This document shows, one piece after another, positions 2,843-62,960 of a stretch of DNA of 64,000 nucleotides. The notes beneath the pieces were generated by a model. The model saw only the letters and a list, made by a program, of their open reading frames with translations. It searched no databases and was not told the DNA's origin. A program made the translations under genes and the position numbers. Position 1 is the stretch's first letter; every line of letters starts with the position of its first letter. This DNA is from Clostridia bacterium (GTDB lineage Bacteria; Bacillota; Clostridia; Oscillospirales; CAG-272), in NCBI GenBank assembly GCA_017513325.1, contig JAFXGC010000182.1:17106-81105 (forward strand), given 5' to 3'.

Positions 2843-5266
2843 TTAACCCTTGATAAGTCTCTCGATATTCCAGATGCGGTCAGCATATTCCTTAATGCTT
2901 CTGTCAGCGGCAAACTTGCCTGCACCTGCACTATTATAAAGAGATCTCTTGTTCCATTCCTTCTGGTCTGCATATACGCGGGCAACTTCCTGCTGAGCCT
3001 TTCTGTAGGACTCAAAGTCTGCCATGCACATGAAGGGATCGGAGTGGAGCAGATATTCAGCGATGTGTGAGAAGGACTCGCCGTTATATCCTGCGCTGAG
3101 GCTGTTAACAACCTGCTGGAGCACCTGGTTCTCGTGATAGTACTTGGAGCTCTTATAGTCCATTGCATAAACGTACTGAGCTTCTTCTGCTGTGAGACCG
3201 AATGTGAACATATTTGCATCTCCTGCCTGTTCCTTCATCTCAATATTAGCACCGTCAAGAGTACCGATTGTGAGGGCACCGTTGATCATAAGCTTCATAC
3301 AGCCTGTACCGCTTGCTTCCTTACCTGCAAGAGAGATCTGCTCGGAAAGTTCTGCTGCGGGAACGAGAGCTTCTGCCATTGTTACGCAATAGTTCTCAAT
3401 GAATACAACGCGGAGTTTTTCGCTGATTTTCTTATCTTTCGCGATCTCCTGGCTCAGGCACCAAATAAGCTTGATGATCTCCTTAGCCATATGATATCCG
3501 GGAGCAGCCTTTGCACCGAAAATGAATGTTCTGGGCTGGATATCGAGATCGGGGTTTTCCTTGAGCATCTGATACATATGAATGATATTCATAGCATTCA
3601 TAAGCTGACGCTTATATTCGTGAAGACGCTTGATCTGAACGTCGAAGAGAGAATCTGTGTTGAGAACAACACCTGTCTTTTCCTTCATAAGCTTAGCAAA
3701 CTTCACCTTATTCTGAGCCTTGATCTTGCCCAGCTTCTCAAGAACTGCATCGTCATTGGCAAAATTGCGAAGGCCTGCAAGCACTGTGGGATCCTTCTTG
3801 AATCCGTCGCCAACACAATCTGTGATGAGCTTGGAAAGAGCGGGGTTGGAATAGCACAGCCATCTGCGGTGAGCGATACCGTTTGTTACGTTATCGAACT
3901 TTTCGGGCCAGAGGCGATAGAAATTCTTGAATGTGATATCGCGGAGAATACCGGAGTGGATCTCAGAAACGCCGTTTACGTGGTGAGAACCGATGATTGC
4001 AAGGTTAGCCATATGAACCTGGCCGTTTGAAACAACTGCCATTTCAGCAATTCTGTCCCAGTTGCCGGGGAACTTTTCCCAGATCTCGTGGCAGAAACGC
4101 TCGTTGATCTCTTTGATGATCATATAAAGTCTGGGCAGACGGAGACGGAAGATCTCTTCGCCCCACTTTTCAAGTGCTTCGGGAAGAACTGTATGGTTTG
4201 TATAGGAGCATGTGCGGCAAACGATATCCCATGCTGTATCCCAATCCATGCAATATTCATCAAGAAGGATACGCATAAGTTCGGGAACGCACATTGCAGG
4301 GTGTGTATCATTGATATGGATAGCAACCTTATCGGGAAGTGTTTCGATGTTGCCGTATACTGCCATATGGTCACGGATGATGCTCTGGCAGGATGCTGAT
4401 ACCATAAAGTACTGCTGTGTGAGACGGAGAACCTTACCGTCATAGTTATTATCAGCAGGATAAAGAAGCTTACAGATAATATCAGCAGCAAGAGACTTCT
4501 GCGCAACGTTATCGTTGTATCCGCCTGTATAGTCGCCGATAGCGAGGCGCTCGGGAGCTGCTGCTCTTGCCTTCCAAAGACGAAGCTGGGAAACTGCCTC
4601 AGAATCAGCGCCGCTCATCATCATATCATAAGGAACTGCTTCGATTGTTTCGCAGTTATCGTATGCAATAACGTGTCTGCCTTCGTCCCAGAGTTCTCTT
4701 ACCTGGCCGCCAAAGCGTACCTTATAAACTCTGTCCTCACGGGGTGTGAGCCAGATGCCGCCGCCGGGGAGCCAGTTATCGGGAAGCTCAACCTGGTGGC
4801 CATCTATGATTCTCTGCTTAAAGAGACCGTATTCATAGCAAAGGGAGAAACCTGTTGCGGGATAATCGAGAGAAGAAAGGGAGTCGATAAAGCAAGCTGC
4901 AAGGCGGCCGAGACCACCGTTACCAAGACCTGCATCGGGTTCGCAATCATAAAGATCGTCCAGCTTGTGGCCCATAGAAGAGATAGCCTTCTTATAAGTG
5001 TCATCAAGACCAAGGTTACAAAGGTTATTCTTGAGGCTGCGGCCTACAAGATATTCCATACACATATAATATACGCGCTTTGCGCCTTCTTCATTAACCT
5101 TTTTCTTAAATTCCTGACGCTTCGCTGAGAGAATATCGCGAACTGTGAGAGCTGCTGCTTTATACATCTGCTCCTTGGATGCTTCTTCAGGTGTGCATCC
5201 AAAATATCTGGAAAGTTTAGATTCAATGTTAGCCTTTACTTCGGCTGTATTAGGGGTATAATTCAT
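2843..5266 (-). CDS. glgP: glycogen/maltodextrin phosphorylase (GT35)
   Basis: 807-aa ORF. It has the PLP-site motif EASGTGCMKLMINGALTIGTLDGANIEM and the length typical of alpha-glucan phosphorylases. Confidence 0.95.
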   Translation of the reverse strand: MNYTPNTAEVKANIESKLSRYFGCTPEEASKEQMYKAAALTVRDILSAKRQEFKKKVNEEGAKRVYYMCMEYLVGRSLKNNLCNLGLDDTYKKAISSMGHKLDDLYDCEPDAGLGNGGLGRLAACFIDSLSSLDYPATGFSLCYEYGLFKQRIIDGHQVELPDNWLPGGGIWLTPREDRVYKVRFGGQVRELWDEGRHVIAYDNCETIEAVPYDMMMSGADSEAVSQLRLWKARAAAPERLAIGDYTGGYNDNVAQKSLAADIICKLLYPADNNYDGKVLRLTQQYFMVSASCQSIIRDHMAVYGNIETLPDKVAIHINDTHPAMCVPELMRILLDEYCMDWDTAWDIVCRTCSYTNHTVLPEALEKWGEEIFRLRLPRLYMIIKEINERFCHEIWEKFPGNWDRIAEMAVVSNGQVHMANLAIIGSHHVNGVSEIHSGILRDITFKNFYRLWPEKFDNVTNGIAHRRWLCYSNPALSKLITDCVGDGFKKDPTVLAGLRNFANDDAVLEKLGKIKAQNKVKFAKLMKEKTGVVLNTDSLFDVQIKRLHEYKRQLMNAMNIIHMYQMLKENPDLDIQPRTFIFGAKAAPGYHMAKEIIKLIWCLSQEIAKDKKISEKLRVVFIENYCVTMAEALVPAAELSEQISLAGKEASGTGCMKLMINGALTIGTLDGANIEMKEQAGDANMFTFGLTAEEAQYVYAMDYKSSKYYHENQVLQQVVNSLSAGYNGESFSHIAEYLLHSDPFMCMADFESYRKAQQEVARVYADQKEWNKRSLYNSAGAGKFAADRSIKEYADRIWNIERLIKG

Positions 5267-5355: not shown

Positions 5356-6789
5356 TCACATTTCCTCATACAGATCTGCATAAGCTTCTGCCGATCTTTT
5401 CCAGGAAAAGTCGATTTTCATAACGCGCTGCTGAAGTTTTCTCAATTCCGCCTGATCATCATAAAGCGATATTGCAAGCAGGAGTTTTTCATAAAACGCC
5501 TTTGATGAATACTGACTGAACGTGAGTCCGTTTCCGCTGATGATACCGTTATCGTTGCGATAATCCTTGATTGTATCATAAAGTCCGCCTGTCTGACGGG
5601 TTACGGGAACAGCTCCATAGCGTGATGCTATCATCTGCGCAAGGCCGCAGGGTTCGCTCTTTGAGGGCATAATGAAGAAATCGGATGCAGCATAAACTCT
5701 GCGTGAGAGGCTTCTGTCATAAGTGATAAGAGCTCTCATTTTATCGGGATATGCTTCTTCAAGCCATCTGAAAAAGCTTTCGTATTCATATTCACCTGTT
5801 CCAAGCACTACAAGCTGAACATCGTTTGAAAGCAGCATATGAGAAACTGCGTGAACAAGGTCGATACCCTTATGGGCTGCAAGGCGTGTTATCATTGAAA
5901 ACACAGGAACGTTCTTCTCAGGAAGAGAAAGTTCCTTCTGCAAGGCAGTTTTGTCAAATTTCTTATTGCTTATACTGCGCCACATATAATTTTTTGCAAT
6001 ATTTTCATCGGTATGAGGATCATAAAGCTCCTCATCTATACCGTTGACTATACCGCAAAGCTTATCTGCATTTTTTTGGAACATGGAATGAAGTCCGCAG
6101 CCATATTCCTCGGTTTTGATCTCTTCAGCATAGCGGGGGCTCACCGTCGTTACTTTATCCGCACATTCAATTGCAGCTTTCATAACGTTGAGCGCGCCGT
6201 CAAGCTCAACAAGCTCTGCATATTTCCAGGGGAGGGAGAAAAGGTCGTTAAGATTCTGCATACCGAATTTCCCCTGATATTCAACATTGTGAATAGTGAA
6301 CACGGTAGACACGTTCTTATATTTCTCATTTTCTTCGCTCATCTGCTGAACATACAGAACGCTGAGAGCGCTCTGCCAATCGTTTGCGTGAAGAACGTCG
6401 GGATAGTAGTCCATTTCAGACATCATCTGCGCCACTGCGCGAGAAAAGAACGCGAAGCGCTCTCCGTCGTCATAATGTCCGTAAAGCCCGTCACGCTTGA
6501 AATAAAACTCGTTATCAATAAAATAGAAAATCACACCGTTCAAGCTCAAACTGAGGATACCGCAATACTGATTGCGCCAACCAAGCTGCACGGTGAATAT
6601 TTTTTCAGTTTTCATCTGCTTTCGCCAATTTTCGCCAACACAGCCGTAAAGAGGCAGCGCAACTCTGATATCAGCGCCTGCGCCCATATATTCCTTAACA
6701 GCTTTGGGAAGGCTGCCCATAACGTCACCAAGACCTCCGCTTGAAGCAAAGGGGGTACATTCAGAGCCAACATAAAGAATTTTCTTCAT
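5356..6789 (-). CDS. glgA: glycogen synthase (ADP-glucose type, GT5)
   Basis: 477 aa. The N-terminus MKKILYVGSECTPFASSGGLGDV is the classic GlgA KxGGL-type motif. Confidence 0.95.
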   Translation of the reverse strand: MKKILYVGSECTPFASSGGLGDVMGSLPKAVKEYMGAGADIRVALPLYGCVGENWRKQMKTEKIFTVQLGWRNQYCGILSLSLNGVIFYFIDNEFYFKRDGLYGHYDDGERFAFFSRAVAQMMSEMDYYPDVLHANDWQSALSVLYVQQMSEENEKYKNVSTVFTIHNVEYQGKFGMQNLNDLFSLPWKYAELVELDGALNVMKAAIECADKVTTVSPRYAEEIKTEEYGCGLHSMFQKNADKLCGIVNGIDEELYDPHTDENIAKNYMWRSISNKKFDKTALQKELSLPEKNVPVFSMITRLAAHKGIDLVHAVSHMLLSNDVQLVVLGTGEYEYESFFRWLEEAYPDKMRALITYDRSLSRRVYAASDFFIMPSKSEPCGLAQMIASRYGAVPVTRQTGGLYDTIKDYRNDNGIISGNGLTFSQYSSKAFYEKLLLAISLYDDQAELRKLQQRVMKIDFSWKRSAEAYADLYEEM

Positions 6790-30494: not shown

Positions 30495-30712
30495 CTTTTT
30501 TCCTGCAGTGTTTCGTGATAGGGTTGCTAATTGAACCCACAGTTGATTAATGGAGTGAACACTCCGCGTAGGAATGCAGGCCTCCCGACCGCCTCTCTTT
30601 TGACAGACGAATCGGACGTTGGAAGCACAAAGCGCGGACGACGCACACCACCTTGCATGAGCAGGGTTTCACATTGTGACTTTACACGGCACTGCGGGAT
30701 CTTTTCTTTTTT
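30495..30712 (+). ncRNA. ssrS: probable 6S RNA (SsrS)
   Basis: An ORF-free ~215-nt stretch. A closing stem pairs CCUGCAGUG (30502-30510) with CACUGCGGG (30690-30698) and is followed by a U tract. Internal segments CUCCGCGUAGG and GGACGACGCACACCACCUUG...AGGGUU resemble, from memory, E. coli 6S segments CUCCGCGGUUGG and GACGACACAUUCACCUUG...AGGGUU. Confidence 0.6.
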
Positions 30713-42801: not shown

Positions 42802-43052
42802 ACACTTTCAGAACGAAAGTGTCATAGTGAGTTACATTTTTGAAACACCATCTCAAAAACAAGAATAATAAGTGATATTGTGAGACAGGTCTCACAGTGA
42901 TATTTTACCTATCGGCAAAGTGGTATTGAAACTTGCAGTTTCAGTGATATTATATTCGCATCCAAAACTGTCCGAAGGACAATATCACTGCGTATCAATA
43001 TCACTCGCCGAAGGCGAATATAACTGAGGCACCTCCGTAAGGAAGGTGCCTC
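42802..43052 (+). repeat. phased 9-mer / variable-hairpin array, copy A
   Basis: GTGATAT-type cores start at 42827 (degenerate), 42872, 42897, 42920 (GTGGTAT) and 42944. Reverse-complement cores ATATCAC are at 42982 and 42998, and ATATAAC at 43018. Small perfect hairpins lie between cores, and a closing hairpin with a GUAA loop spans 43026-43052. Confidence 0.85.
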
Positions 43053-55369: not shown

Positions 55370-56401
55370 TTAAATAAGGTCTGCAATATCGAGAACGAGA
55401 CGTTCTGTCTTTTCCCAGCCGATGCAGGGGTCGGTGATGGATTTTCCGTAAACACCTTCGCCGATCTTCTGATTTCCGTCTTCAATATAGGATTCGATCA
55501 TAAAGCCCTTAACGTAGCTCTTGATATCAGCGCTGTGGCGGCAAGCATGGAGAACTTCTTTACAGATTCTCTCCTGCTCATTATATTTCTTGCCGGAGTT
55601 TGCATGGTTGGAGTCCACGATAAGTGCCATATTTGCAAGACCCTTTGCCTTATATGCCGTGTAGAGATTTGCAAGGTCTTCATAGTGGTAATTAGGCAGA
55701 GAATGACCGTAGTTATCAACATATCCTCTGAGGATGGCGTGGGCAAGCTCGTTACCCTCTGTTTCAACTTCCCAACCTCTGTAGATAAATGAATGTTTAT
55801 GCTGAGCAGCCATAATGGAGTTGAGCATAACGGAAACATCTCCGCAAGGGGGATTTGTCATACCAACGGGGATGTCGATACCGCTGGACGTGAGTCTGTG
55901 CTCCTGATTTTCAACACTGCGCGCGCCGATTGCAACGTAGGAGAGCAAATCGGAAAGATATCTGTAGTTATCGGGATAGAGCATTTCATCAGCTGTTGAA
56001 AGTCCTGTTTCCTTGAGCACTGTTGTGTGTAGGCGTCTTATTGCGATGATTCCTTCAAGAATATCAGGCTCTGCCTCGGGATCGGGCTGATGAACCATTC
56101 CCTTATATCCGTCGCCTGTGGTTCGGGGCTTGTTTGTATAAACTCGGGGAATGATCACAATTTTATCTGCAACCTTTTCCTGCAGTTTTGCAAGACGGGA
56201 TGAATAATCAAGAACTGCATCTTCTCTGTCAGCAGAGCAGGGGCCGATAACAAGCACCATTTTATCAATTTCGCTTTTAAACACCTTAGCGATCTCTTCA
56301 TCGCGTGCTGCTTTTATCTTAGCAAGCTCTTCCGTTACGGGATACTGTTCCTTGATCTCCTTTGGAACAGGAAGTTTTCTCTTGAAGTTCATATTTTTCA
56401 T
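55370..56401 (-). CDS. aroF: 3-deoxy-7-phosphoheptulose (DAHP) synthase
   Basis: 343 aa. Motifs LVIGPCS, KPRT and the DxxHxN-type region VDSNHANSGK are typical of class I DAHP synthases. Confidence 0.85.
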   Translation of the reverse strand: MKNMNFKRKLPVPKEIKEQYPVTEELAKIKAARDEEIAKVFKSEIDKMVLVIGPCSADREDAVLDYSSRLAKLQEKVADKIVIIPRVYTNKPRTTGDGYKGMVHQPDPEAEPDILEGIIAIRRLHTTVLKETGLSTADEMLYPDNYRYLSDLLSYVAIGARSVENQEHRLTSSGIDIPVGMTNPPCGDVSVMLNSIMAAQHKHSFIYRGWEVETEGNELAHAILRGYVDNYGHSLPNYHYEDLANLYTAYKAKGLANMALIVDSNHANSGKKYNEQERICKEVLHACRHSADIKSYVKGFMIESYIEDGNQKIGEGVYGKSITDPCIGWEKTERLVLDIADLI

Positions 56402-56600
56402 TGTTTGTGACCAAGCCTTTCTTATAGGGGATGTGCTATATATACGCGTATAGAATATTCATCCGATTTTAGAATGAATTTGGATTTATTATACTCGCTT
56501 TTTGCCTTTAAAACAATAAAGCGACCGCAAAAAAACTATTTTTGTAACATCCGTCAAAATATGAACATCTCACTTGGCACAAATAACAAATAAAAAATCC

Positions 56601-56810
56601 GCCGAACGGCGACCTGCGGTAAAGCAGGTCAGCCGAACGATGTTTGCCCTTGCGGGCAAGTGATGTTGCCTGCGCAGTGATGTTTACTGCGTAAGTGATG
56701 TTACGCCTGACGGCGTAGTGGGCAAACATCACATCACCGGCGACCAACGGACGCAGCATCACTATGAGCAAAGCGAATAACATCACTTTTGCGTAAGCAA
56801 AAACATCACT
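56601..56810 (+). repeat. phased 9-mer / variable-hairpin array, copy B (GTGATGT variant)
   Basis: AGTGATGTT at 56659, 56676 and 56694. Its complement AACATCAC(T) is at 56725, 56779 and 56802, plus shorter ATCAC copies. Small hairpins lie between them. An 11-bp long-range complement pairs gatgtttgccc (56639-56649) with gggcaaacatc (56720-56730). Confidence 0.8.
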
Positions 56811-56872
56811 CATTTATTACCCGAACGTAAAATATGGTATACCACACTATACCGTGAATGCAAAATAACGTG

Positions 56873-56899
56873 TAAAAAAGGACGAGAAACTCTCGTCCT
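56873..56899 (-). terminator. lysA terminator
   Basis: aggacgaga (56879-56887) pairs with tctcgtcct (56891-56899). A U run follows on the minus strand. Confidence 0.7.
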
Positions 56900-56952
56900 T
56901 TTGACTTTTTTATAATACTGCTTTATGAAAGGTGTCTCAAACGGATTTTTTA

Positions 56953-58263
56953 TTACATATCGTTTCTGCAAAGATCTTCATACGTTTCGCGTCTGACAGC
57001 AACATAGCTTTCACCATCCTTGACCATAACAACGGCAGGTCGGGGAAGACGGTTATAATTTGACGCCATGGAATAGTTATACGCACCTGTTACAAGCACG
57101 GCCATTGTGTCTCCGCGCTGAGCCTTGGGAAGCTTAACGTCTTCCTGAATAAGATCTCCGCTTTCGCAGCAGCGGCCTGCAACTGTTGCTGTGATCTCTG
57201 CTTTATCTGCCGCCTTGTTTGCAAGGAGAACGGAATAGTCGGATTCATAGAGCGCATATCTGGGATTATCGGGCATTCCGCCGTCGATTGAAACGTAGCT
57301 CTTATATCCCGTGATGGTTTTAACAGAGCCAACAGTATAGAGTGTAAGTCCGCTGTCGGCAACGATGCTTCTACCCGGCTCCATAAGGATGCAGGGCTGA
57401 TTGATGCCAAGCTCTGCGCACATTTTCTTTATTTCACCTGCAAGGCCCTTGATGTTTGCCTCGTAGTCGATTTGAGGATCGCTTTCAACGTAGCGAACAC
57501 CGAATCCGCCGCCAAGATTGAGAACGGGAACCTCATATCCACATTCATCCTTAACAGCTTTGATAAAACGGAGCATAATTTCTGCCGCATCGGAGAAGGA
57601 TTCATATTCAAAGATCTGTGAGCCTATGTGGCAATGGAAGCCTTCAAGCTCTATATTGGCAAGAGACAAAGTGTACTTAACTATCTCCATCGCCTGACCT
57701 GTTTCAATAGCTGTTCCGAACTTGGAATCCACTTTGCCTGTGGAGATCTTTGCCTGAGTGTGAGGGTCAATTCCGGGAGTGAGACGGAGAATAACCTTCT
57801 GGCAAATCCCCTTTTCCCCTGCAATTCTCGAAATAGCATCAAGCTCCTCACGGTTATCTGCAATAAAATGGCCCACTCCGGAGTCTATAGCAAACTCTAT
57901 ATCCGCATCAGTTTTATTATTTCCGTGGAAATAAGAGTTTTCAAGGGGGAAGCCTGCCATTTTTGCTGTGTAAAGTTCTCCGGGAGAAACAAGGTCGGTC
58001 GCCATACCTTCTTCAGCGATTATGGAATAAAGGCGTTTGAAGCAGCAAGCCTTGCTGGCAAAGAGGGGACGTGAAATCTCTCCCATATATTTTTTCATTG
58101 CATTGATATACACTCTTGCATTATGGCGGATCCTCTCCTCGTCCATAACGTAAAGAGGAGTTCCGTATTTTTCTGCAAGAGAAACTGTGTCCACCCCTGC
58201 AATTTCAAGATGGTTTTTTTCGTTTATTGAAAGATTTTCGTGAAGCATATTATAAACTTCCAA
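56953..58263 (-). CDS. lysA: diaminopimelate decarboxylase
   Basis: 436 aa with the fold-III PLP decarboxylase motifs FASKAC, HCHIGSQ, GGGFGV and CESGD. Confidence 0.95.
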   Translation of the reverse strand: MEVYNMLHENLSINEKNHLEIAGVDTVSLAEKYGTPLYVMDEERIRHNARVYINAMKKYMGEISRPLFASKACCFKRLYSIIAEEGMATDLVSPGELYTAKMAGFPLENSYFHGNNKTDADIEFAIDSGVGHFIADNREELDAISRIAGEKGICQKVILRLTPGIDPHTQAKISTGKVDSKFGTAIETGQAMEIVKYTLSLANIELEGFHCHIGSQIFEYESFSDAAEIMLRFIKAVKDECGYEVPVLNLGGGFGVRYVESDPQIDYEANIKGLAGEIKKMCAELGINQPCILMEPGRSIVADSGLTLYTVGSVKTITGYKSYVSIDGGMPDNPRYALYESDYSVLLANKAADKAEITATVAGRCCESGDLIQEDVKLPKAQRGDTMAVLVTGAYNYSMASNYNRLPRPAVVMVKDGESYVAVRRETYEDLCRNDM

Positions 58264-60003: not shown

Positions 60004-60172
60004 CACCCGGATAGCTCTCCGCAAAAGCGACAGTCGGAGTGATATTATTCACTCAAACCGGTTCAGCCCCGCACCAAAGGCTGCCCTCGGCACCTGCACC
60101 TTTAACTCAGGCAACGGGCGGTCACCCCTTTAACATCTGAGCTACTCATTGCAAAATGCACCTCTACCGTGT
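60004..60172 (-). promoter_or_regulatory. lysine riboswitch (L-box) controlling dapA-dapB-lysA
   Basis: The minus strand reads GGTAGAGGTGC...GAGTAGC...AAAGGGGTGACCGCC...GGTGCCGAGGG...GGGGCTGAAC...ACTGTCGC...GGAGAGCTATCCGGGTG. The order and spelling match conserved L-box segments. Confidence 0.85.
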
Positions 60173-60323
60173 AGCACAAGTATAGCACACCTTCAAAATC
60201 GTGTCAATATATATTTTTTATATGTAGATAATTTAAACGTTTATTTACCAAAACTATTGTAAAAATTATTTTTATGCTTTAAAATAAAATAAATAATACT
60301 GACCGAAAGGAAAGGTAAATTAT

Positions 60324-62588: not shown

Positions 62589-62699
62589 TTCGAATATAAA
62601 CACCCGCAGACCAAAGAACAGGGTTGCTAAGGACAGTTATCTTTGATGAAAACGGAATTTGGCACACGAATTCCCTGCTTGTGACAGTATAAGACAAAA

Positions 62700-62748
62700 C
62701 TACCCGAAGAAGAGAAAACAAACCTCTTTTTCGGGTAGTAATTTTTAT
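62700..62748 (+). terminator. gldA terminator
   Basis: ctacccgaa (62700-62708) pairs with ttcgggtag (62730-62738), followed by a T-rich run. Confidence 0.55.
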
Positions 62749-62960
62749 ATAGTGATATTCTTTGCTGCGCAAAGAGTGATATGATTGCCAACGGCAATCG
62801 TGATATTAAAACCTGCGGTTTTAGTGATATTTTATTCGCCTTTTAAAACTCGCAAAGCGAATAACACTCGGCGTTAGCCGAATATCACTGCGTAGCAATA
62901 TCACTCGCCGCAAGGCGAATAAAACTGCCCAAGTGTTCTTAAGGACACTTGGGCAAAATC
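62747..62960 (+). repeat. phased 9-mer / variable-hairpin array, copy C (best-formed copy)
   Basis: GTGATAT starts at 62752, 62776, 62800 and 62824, exactly 24 bp apart. Each 17-nt interval is a different perfect hairpin. Reverse-complement cores are at 62861, 62882, 62898 and 62919. The closing hairpin spans 62926-62955. Confidence 0.9.

Follow-up and report, generated by a model that had tools for sequence, protein, structure and literature searches.

The window analysed here is a stretch of 64,000 nucleotides from a Clostridia bacterium of the Oscillospirales (contig JAFXGC010000182.1), an uncultivated organism represented by a metagenome-assembled genome and close to Candidatus Avispirillum. 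Between the stop codon of its lysA gene and the promoter region of a DAHP synthase gene (called aroF below), where the original prediction had correctly placed it, lies an array of small hairpins and repeated heptamers that is antisense to both genes and that we call copy B (56639-56810). The observation that started this work, a copy in which GTGATGT and ACATCAC replace GTGATAT and ATATCAC, is confirmed. Three units of the left arm carry AGTGATGTT on the plus strand (56659, 56676 and 56694) and three of the right arm carry AACATCAC(T) (56725, 56779 and 56802), all at the positions first reported; additional right-arm sites are an overlapping ACATCAC at 56730 and, with one mismatch, AGCATCACT at 56755. 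The hairpins tgc-CTGC-gca, ttac-TGC-gtaa, tacgcc-TGAC-ggcgta and ttttgc-GTAA-gcaaaa (56787-56802) were all found in the sequence, the last being the sole intact hairpin of the right arm, and the 11-bp long-range complement between GATGTTTGCCC (56639-56649) and GGGCAAACATC (56720-56730) is exact. The heptamers are strongly concentrated: seven of the ten GTGATGT sites of the window fall within the 150-bp stretch of copy B, and GTGATRT occurs 37 times in the window against 10.7 +/- 3.1 times in shuffled sequence, no shuffle reaching 37. Coordinates of the features are collected in Table 1.

Table 1. Features of the lysA-aroF region and of the sister copies in the window (window positions).
Feature	Position	Strand	Description
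DAHP synthase (aroFGH family)	55370-56401	-	flanking gene
101-codon open reading frame	56508-56813	-	spurious; no NCBIfam match
Left half of original bidirectional lysA terminator	56589-56606	.	A-run, stem and loop AATAAAAAATCCGCCGAA, now parted from its partner
hp0	56607-56635	+	11-bp stem with one bulged A, loop GGTAAA; first paired module of the block
P1, 5' strand	56639-56649	+	degenerate first heptamer (GATGTT) and 5' half of first hairpin (TGCCC)
Short arm	56645-56717	+	hairpins tgccc/gggca, tgc/gca, ttac/gtaa and tacgcc/ggcgta with AGTGATGTT three times between; period 17-18 bp
P1, 3' strand (GGGCAAACATC)	56720-56730	+	overlaps first inverted heptamer
Long arm	56725-56810	+	AACATCAC at 56725, degenerate AGCATCACT at 56755, AACATCACT at 56779 and 56802; period 23-24 bp
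Segment after long arm	56811-56875	+	holds ATTACCCGAA and TATACCACACTATACC; conserved with locus L259 to ~56856
Bidirectional terminator-like hairpin of the insert	56876-56902	.	12-bp stem, A-run before, T-run after; now 3' of lysA stop
Block tail	56903-56941	+	39 nt, from junction mapping
Right half of split lysA terminator	56942-56954	.	CGGA and T-run
lysA	56953-58263	-	flanking gene
Copy A, GTGATAT type	42871-43052	-	hp0 43026-43052; P1 43014-43023 / 42950-42959; Gut-1 42.5 bits
Copy C block	62598-62956	-	hp0 ~62925-62956; GTGATAT element 62745-62924; terminator 62693-62738; tail ~100 nt

Copy B belongs to a dispersed family with a fixed plan. One metagenome scan, in which the variable heptamer positions were left free on both arms, together with the window and two viral contigs yielded 41 non-redundant elements, which share less than half of their 11-mers. 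Every one of the 41, read in the orientation of the Rfam motif Gut-1 considered below, has the same order of parts. First comes hp0, a strong hairpin, and then the degenerate first heptamer (AGTTATATT, CTAAGTT or CGATGTT among its variants). A short arm follows, in which GTGAWRT separates three or four hairpins of 3-5 bp at a period of 16-20 bp, then a centre, and last a long arm, in which AYWTCAC separates three or four hairpins of 5-7 bp at a period of 22-26 bp. The core measures ~180 nt and, with accessory modules, 335-360 bp. Searched with a family profile of the short arm, the window yields three copies and no more: copy B lies on the plus strand (56638-56737, E 3e-17), A and C on the minus strand. 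The Rfam matches agree that copy B is oriented opposite to the other two. Its 'left arm' therefore corresponds to the right arm of A and C, which explains the spacing of 17-18 bp, and its right arm is a decayed long arm. The shorter spacing and smaller hairpins that had been described for copy B are real, but they are no peculiarity of this copy, being those of the family short arm seen on the other strand; the earlier comparison with A and C had set non-homologous arms against each other.

Several other arrays were set aside. Among the matches listed from a viral-contig scan with three free heptamers, only L091 and L169 are real elements and the rest are tandem-repeat junk, and all 34 matches of a viral two-arm scan with free NN were coincidences in coding sequence, useful only as a chance baseline. 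Dense alternating ATTTCAC/GTGAAAT arrays with a period of ~21 bp (L248, L251, L263 and L348) do not have the Gut-1 architecture and are probably an unrelated repeat. A separate observation concerns L270 (~6667-6746) and L276 (2212-2281), where six direct GTGAAGT repeats follow each other at a period of 10-12 bp with no hairpins between them and one inverted copy stands next to them before a T-run, an iteron-like arrangement of the same heptamer. As candidates for copy B itself, a CRISPR-like array, an iteron origin and a cluster of integrase arm sites were dropped in view of the palindromic spacers, the three copies within 20 kb and the lack of associated genes.

The Gut-1 RNA motif (Rfam RF01706) was found in human-gut sequence by Weinberg et al. 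(2010; PMC2864571), who gave no function and rated it, on covariation, as certainly RNA. Copy C scores above the curated gathering cut-off of its covariance model (52.9 bits on the minus strand, the cut-off being 50 bits). Copy B aligns with the model over its full length (1-77; plus strand, 56635-56706) at 34.9 bits (E 4.4e-5), which lies under the cut-off. If the elements are typed by the two variable heptamer positions (GTGATAT being TA and GTGATGT being TG), the AA- and AG-type relatives reach 55-77 bits, whereas the TG relatives, like copies A and B, stay at 35-45 bits. Copy B has four consecutive hairpins with AGUGAUGUU three times between them, in the manner of the motif, and a chain of homology leads from it to members above the cut-off through the AG-type element L259 (55.3 bits). 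What is alike is the run of small hairpins, three or four in number, the conserved linker resembling GUGAAAU and the origin from uncultivated gut Clostridia; copy B differs from the model in its linker, GUGAUGU, and in its score.

The Rfam model covers one arm only (77 nt), without the long-range helix, hp0 and the inverted long arm, and the flanks of the Weinberg seed already hold a second, inverted array. The Gut-1 RNA motif is the short arm of a larger two-armed element, and copy B is a diverged, inverted, sub-threshold member of the family. The small RNA (sRNA) label of Rfam ('Gene; sRNA') does not foresee the DNA-level behaviour and mobility indicated here, and a full-text search of the literature collection used here found no paper besides that of Weinberg et al. 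that names Gut-1. Weak Rfam matches around copy B (MicX at 27.6 bits, sraA, DapZ, Phe leader and CRISPR-DR18) lie far under their cut-offs on terminator-like hairpins and were rejected.

The 11-bp complement, originally described as enclosing the left units in a closed domain, is indeed a conserved and covarying helix, P1, that closes the short arm. Each of the 41 elements has a centre that forms a perfect complement of 9-14 nt (mean 11.3) with the first heptamer and, beyond it, the 5' half of the first hairpin, whereas non-cognate pairs reach 6.8 nt and shuffles 3.4 nt; in copy C the two strands lie at 62914-62924 and 62830-62840. An alignment of 39 sequences shows ten core pairs that are 97-100% paired; eight pairs have changed on both sides (45 cells) and none on one side only. 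Variants such as TTATATTCGCC, TTTTATTCGCC, TTCTATTCGCC, TAAGTTTGCCC, GATGTTTGCCC and GAAATAAATCCC meet an exact partner each time. The 5' half of P1 alternatively pairs locally as the first hairpin (97% paired), and the two pairings are mutually exclusive.

Use of one heptamer variant on both arms, first seen in copy B, is a rule of the family. The two arms agree in 40 of the 41 elements, where shuffling gives 22 and did not once in 20000 rounds give 40; the figure is inflated by shared descent, and independent switches are few (about three). The majority types are TA in 29 elements, AG in six, TG in four and AA in one, with one mixed AG/TG element.

This concordance had been taken to mean either that the arms base-pair or that the copy is homogenised around one recognition sequence. 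Under the former model the left heptamers would pair with the right ones, in RNA or single-stranded DNA, to form a ladder of short helices from which the hairpins branch. The heptamers of the two arms are indeed all mutually complementary, minimum-energy folds use some arm-to-arm helices, and P1 itself is a strict pairing of the degenerate first heptamer with the centre. However, none of the 13 deviant units among 234 has a matching partner in nested or parallel register. The deviants of the mixed elements L326, L245, L236 and L247 are left unmatched, and in L327, with TG, AG, AG on the short arm and TG, TG, AG on the long arm, all three nested pairs would mismatch. In L002 (4226-4407, after tRNA-Met, Gut-1 67.7 bits) the short arm has GTGAAAT three times and the long arm ATTTCAT four times, a change confined to one arm in all four of its units, although this C>T would still permit G.U pairs. 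Furthermore, the arms often hold unequal numbers of units, and all units within one arm tend to be identical, which pairing does not demand. Because mixed elements are uncompensated, arm-to-arm pairing does not keep the heptamers alike, and we regard this model as very improbable. A common recognition sequence, or homogenisation within and between arms, fits better, as the second of the two original suggestions had it.

The history of GTGATGT in copy B can be read from its kin. Copy B and L259 have in common hp0 (gacctNcGGTAAAgcaggtc), the hairpin with the stem tgccc, AGTGGGCAAAC at the centre and a further 46 nt past the long arm, and BLAST aligns L259 1018-1252 with window positions 56608-56856. 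All BLAST partners of copy B are AG or TG elements (L259, L288, L303 and L326), and no GTGATAT element is among them; the other TG elements are L288, L303 and L326, the first two with ACATCAC long arms. As the nearest relatives use GTGAAGT, the change proper to copy B is A>T at heptamer position 5 and not, as had been proposed, a single A>G change at position 6. GTGATGT is not a local compensatory mutation; by sequence relationship it marks a separate AG/TG sublineage that stands beside the GTGATAT lineage in one genome. Two side observations belong here. Positions 56815-56856 match L259 at ~1215-1252 (ATTACC(A)CCCGAA ... ACACACTATACC), ACCCGAA being part of the terminator stem in copy C, and the TG-type element of L288 adjoins a shortened match to the T-box leader (3106-3337, minus strand, 65.5 bits; cut-off 93).

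Comparison of the window with contigs carrying close LysA homologues established that copy B was inserted. A 335-bp block (56607-56941, plus strand) has no counterpart in L358, a strain with 99% identity in LysA, and its junctions were mapped exactly: it takes the place of one C that the empty site has on the loop side of the lysA terminator hairpin. L358 retains an intact bidirectional terminator (aaaaaa-tccgc-TTCG-gcgga-ttttttt) right after the lysA stop, and its aroF upstream region is otherwise the same. In the window the two halves form a 13-nt perfect inverted repeat (56589-56601 and 56942-56954) with 340 nt between its arms, and since this repeat is the split terminator, the insertion could have been suspected from the window alone. 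The block starts exactly at the first base of hp0 and continues with the element, 65 nt, its own bidirectional terminator and a 39-nt tail, the minus strand of which holds a promoter-like TTGAGA-17-TATTAT (56940-56912; consensus match only). A G+C-rich hairpin with a T-run, as expected of an intrinsic terminator, occurs at 56876-56902 on the plus strand and in a composite hairpin at 56612-56599 on the minus strand; such signals are confined to modules of the block, and the heptamer arrays themselves are not terminators. The block is likewise absent from L357, L360, L359 and L001, where lysA and aroF are 204, 221, 276 and 33 bp apart against 551 bp here, and an element is present at one of 80 lysA loci of related species, a patchy distribution. 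In this strain lysA and aroF are uncoupled by the insertion.

The junction also settles the nature of the 101-codon open reading frame called across copy B. An ATG-to-stop frame is present, and it could in principle encode a small protein, but it spans the insertion edge at 56607 and so cannot exist in the empty-site strain L358; it has no family match, its residues are dictated by the repeats, and homologous elements differ by indels and unrelated hairpins. We give the small protein practically no credence. The original judgement that the frame merely reads through repeats and is not a gene was sound, and the frame should not be called in annotation.

Other loci show the same behaviour. The block of copy C is missing from L001, where a 50-bp gap separates the same convergent genes, so that presence/absence polymorphism is seen for two copies of the window. 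The block (~360 bp) recurs in L258 between other genes with in-block flanks that are ~95% identical, and the internal hairpins of the two differ by fully compensated changes. Two copies lying 660 bp apart in L330 are identical at 179 of 180 positions; the identity is bounded precisely by CAGTTATATT and AATATCACT, and outside it the hp0 hairpins are unrelated and the flanks have diverged. L351 and L266 likewise have one element in common but differ in the sequence to its right. Near-identical copies with sharp ends thus occur at different sites, as in miniature inverted-repeat transposable elements (MITEs). The ends of the core (AGTTATATT ... AATATCACT) are the heptamer itself, inverted and imperfect. 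A viral contig (L169, with terminase, portal and Gp15 genes) carries two AG-type copies in opposite orientations within a phage late operon. The same hp0 (gcgtgatactc..gagtatcacgc) precedes the TA-type elements L242, L240 and L278 and the TG-type elements L288 and L303, and such recurrence of hp0 types across loci and lineages suggests that hairpin modules are exchanged between elements. No conserved insertion target upstream of hp0 was seen by eye across loci. A composite palindromic cluster was also observed in L303 (5275-6005), where two elements of the types TGAAAT/ATTTCAT (with an enlarged centre) and GTGATGT stand tail to tail with three terminator hairpins between them, and inverted copies of one hp0 with 14 nt more (AGCACACGGCAGTA) border the pair on the outside.

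The hairpins carry marks that bear on whether they act as DNA or as RNA. A first set of 107 stems holds 519 Watson-Crick pairs (98%), 7 G.T and 3 A.C pairs, without strand bias (P ~5e-6 if 5% wobble is expected). Counts of 7 against 3 are too few to indicate a direction, so the scarcity itself is taken as evidence. A C-G pair closes the loop in 110 of the 130 hairpins of the 41-element set. Pyrimidines make up 80% of the short-arm loops as read on the Gut-1 strand (TTC in 19 of 49) and purines 73% of the long-arm loops (GAA, AAA, GTAA and GAAA), and the strand that reads AYWTCAC therefore shows C(GAA)G-type loops in both arms, a dyad-symmetric property. C(GNA)G and C(GNNA)G form extraordinarily stable DNA mini-hairpins with a Tm of 76 C, while r(GCGAAAGC) melts at 39 C, and they mark single-strand initiation sites and the hairpin promoters of phage N4 (PMC13037366). 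The GAA, GCA, GTAA and GAAA loops of the element, closed by C-G as in CCGAAGG, fit that consensus, whereas the described cases are single hairpins in phage or plasmid origins or promoters and not heptamer-interleaved arrays (PMC13037366). Near-absent wobble, the dominance of C(GNA)G loops and the lack of one-sided changes in P1 favour DNA hairpins over RNA.

These marks must be weighed against the possibility that the element is what Rfam calls it. It would then be a structured non-coding RNA in Gut-1 orientation, often the 3' trailer of an upstream gene or tRNA, with a P1-closed short arm, single-stranded GUGAWRU linkers that bind a protein or target as a sponge or scaffold, and the long arm as anti-sequence. 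The rating of Weinberg et al. (PMC2864571) speaks for it, as do predicted folds that are much stabler than shuffles (z -5.6 to -7.8) and the terminators that often come after the long arm in the same orientation. However, the folds are equally stable on both strands, wobble pairs are nearly absent without strand asymmetry, and C-G-closed triloops, which are poor in RNA, dominate. The hp0 with its T-run sits 0-2 nt before the array and leaves no space for a promoter, so that an RNA would need to arise by read-through. Copy B is antisense to both of its neighbours, and the two phage copies oppose each other in one operon. On balance we hold the RNA explanation to be unlikely.

The reading that we consider probable, with some reserve, is that of a mobile DNA hairpin array read by a heptamer-specific protein. 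Copy B would be one copy of a dispersed, non-coding, two-armed hairpin-array element, and the element itself DNA that moves, or is at least copied horizontally, and inserts within or next to terminator hairpins; here the 335-bp block that splits the lysA terminator would have brought it in. A putative trans-acting protein most likely recognises the heptamer, which faces opposite ways on the two arms, and the palindromes between heptamers most likely behave as hairpins of DNA, whether on a single strand or by extrusion from a supercoiled duplex. The sequences themselves show family membership, architecture and orientation, the insertion polymorphism and the sharp copy boundaries, heptamer concordance, P1 covariation, and the pairing of the stems and the bias of the loops, while recognition by a protein, a single-stranded or cruciform state and the mode of movement are what we infer.

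A number of observations weigh against this mobile-DNA reading, some of them in favour of a transcript. P1 and the hairpins covary, as they would in a functional RNA, and the three-way complementarity in which the 5' half of the first hairpin pairs either locally or with the centre resembles an RNA switch. There is a strong polarity: in 35 of 41 elements a co-oriented gene or tRNA 3' end abuts the hp0/short-arm side (a count based on crude calls of open reading frames and a reading of sequence context), and ~16 tRNA-adjacent loci, which include the same locus in related genomes, are all co-oriented with the short arm proximal. Read-through RNA would also explain this polarity, to which copy B, antisense to lysA and aroF, is an exception. 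No transposase or other partner protein was identified, and no convincing case of arms split around a gene, the mark of an autonomous element, was seen in the collected loci. Divergence among the copies of one genome far exceeds what is typical of young MITEs. Finally, the 335-bp block (CGGCGACC ... GTCTCAAA) has no terminal inverted repeat and no clear target-site duplication; a CGG stands at the start of the insert and just past its end, an ambiguous sign because 3 bp are within chance and one base of the empty site was lost.

The position of some elements between a terminator and a promoter raises a further alternative, a DNA site that serves the host as an insulator of transcription or supercoiling, or as a back-up terminator, with a small protein reading the heptamers. 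Promoters of sigma-70 type (e.g. TTGCCC-17-TATAAT; consensus matches only) begin a few bases past the last heptamer and point toward the next gene in L330 (390-650 and 1050-1310), L315 (~1140-1400) and L002 (~4190-4230), giving the order terminator, element, promoter with the -35 box close to the array. Elements also adjoin highly transcribed tRNA genes, and blocks bring their own bidirectional terminators. TATCACT may be likened to the WATCACW heptads to which the omega repressor of pSM19035 binds. Close relatives, however, do without the element at the same sites, copy B lies antisense inside the operon-like lysA-aroF pair, no candidate protein was identified, and a benefit to the host is not separable from mere tolerance on present evidence. 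We regard a host-serving site as improbable.

As to the rest of the window, no tRNA gene is present within the 64 kb, although adjacency to tRNA genes is common for elements elsewhere, and the lysA-aroF region was unmatched in the plasmid collection. A lysine riboswitch (60004-60174, minus strand, 70.5 bits) lies ahead of dapA-dapB-lysA, and a 6S RNA gene was recognised at 30497-30704 on the plus strand (54.5 bits), both above their Rfam cut-offs.

The element has counterparts among known systems, none of which it matches in full. The repetitive extragenic palindromes (REP) and mosaic elements (BIME) of proteobacteria are mobilised by RAYT transposases. The element shares with them short extragenic palindromes with a conserved motif at the hairpin foot, clusters with inverted orientations, and a position 3' of genes and near terminators in which both orientations are tolerated and presence varies between strains. 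REP stems, in contrast, are conserved within a genome, whereas the stems of the element differ between units and between copies, varying freely with only the heptamer kept, and the fixed two-arm architecture with its closing helix has no REP counterpart; no RAYT-like gene was found, although no search was aimed at one. The modular MITEs of bacteria include the pneumococcal BOX and RUP and the neisserial Correia elements. Like these, the element is small, non-coding, highly structured and dispersed in intergenic copies, with presence/absence polymorphism and near-identical copies of sharp boundaries; it differs in a block without clear terminal inverted repeat or target duplication, in very diverged, mosaic copies within one genome, and in insertion in or beside terminator hairpins. 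The ends of Tn7, Mu and IS21 hold several transposase-binding repeats, with sites of ~20 bp, and flank kilobases of cargo. They resemble the element in one short site repeated directly at each end, inverted between the ends and asymmetric in tight and loose spacing, but their sites are not separated by variable perfect palindromes. We know of no cognate transposase for the hairpin-array element.

A wider reading is possible, and we advance it tentatively: the Gut-1 'RNAs' may not be sRNAs at all but mobile arrays of DNA hairpins, a class so far unrecognised, that gut Oscillospirales share with their phages. A putative heptamer-specific protein would read GTGAWRT on both arms, and a process at the DNA level, for example repair templated by hairpins or selection for extrusion, would hold the spacers strictly to Watson-Crick pairs. 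Modules such as hp0, hairpins and terminators would be shuffled between copies, and distinct heptamer lineages would coexist in one genome and target terminator hairpins.

Gut-1 has been an orphan 'sRNA' in Rfam since 2010, known only from gut metagenomes. The present analysis recasts its model as one arm of a dyad-organised element closed by the covarying long-range helix P1, gained or lost between strains whose LysA proteins are 99% identical and able to split a terminator while bringing its own. To this it adds heptamer lineages that coexist, a modular sharing of hp0 between them and hairpins of DNA-like character. The focus of experiment is thereby shifted to a heptamer-binding protein and to the extrusion or excision of DNA hairpins, and away from the transcript alone. 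If the DNA reading is true, the element would be a Firmicute counterpart of REP/BIME with a design of constant linker and free palindrome, and it would serve as a warning that covariation alone does not prove RNA.

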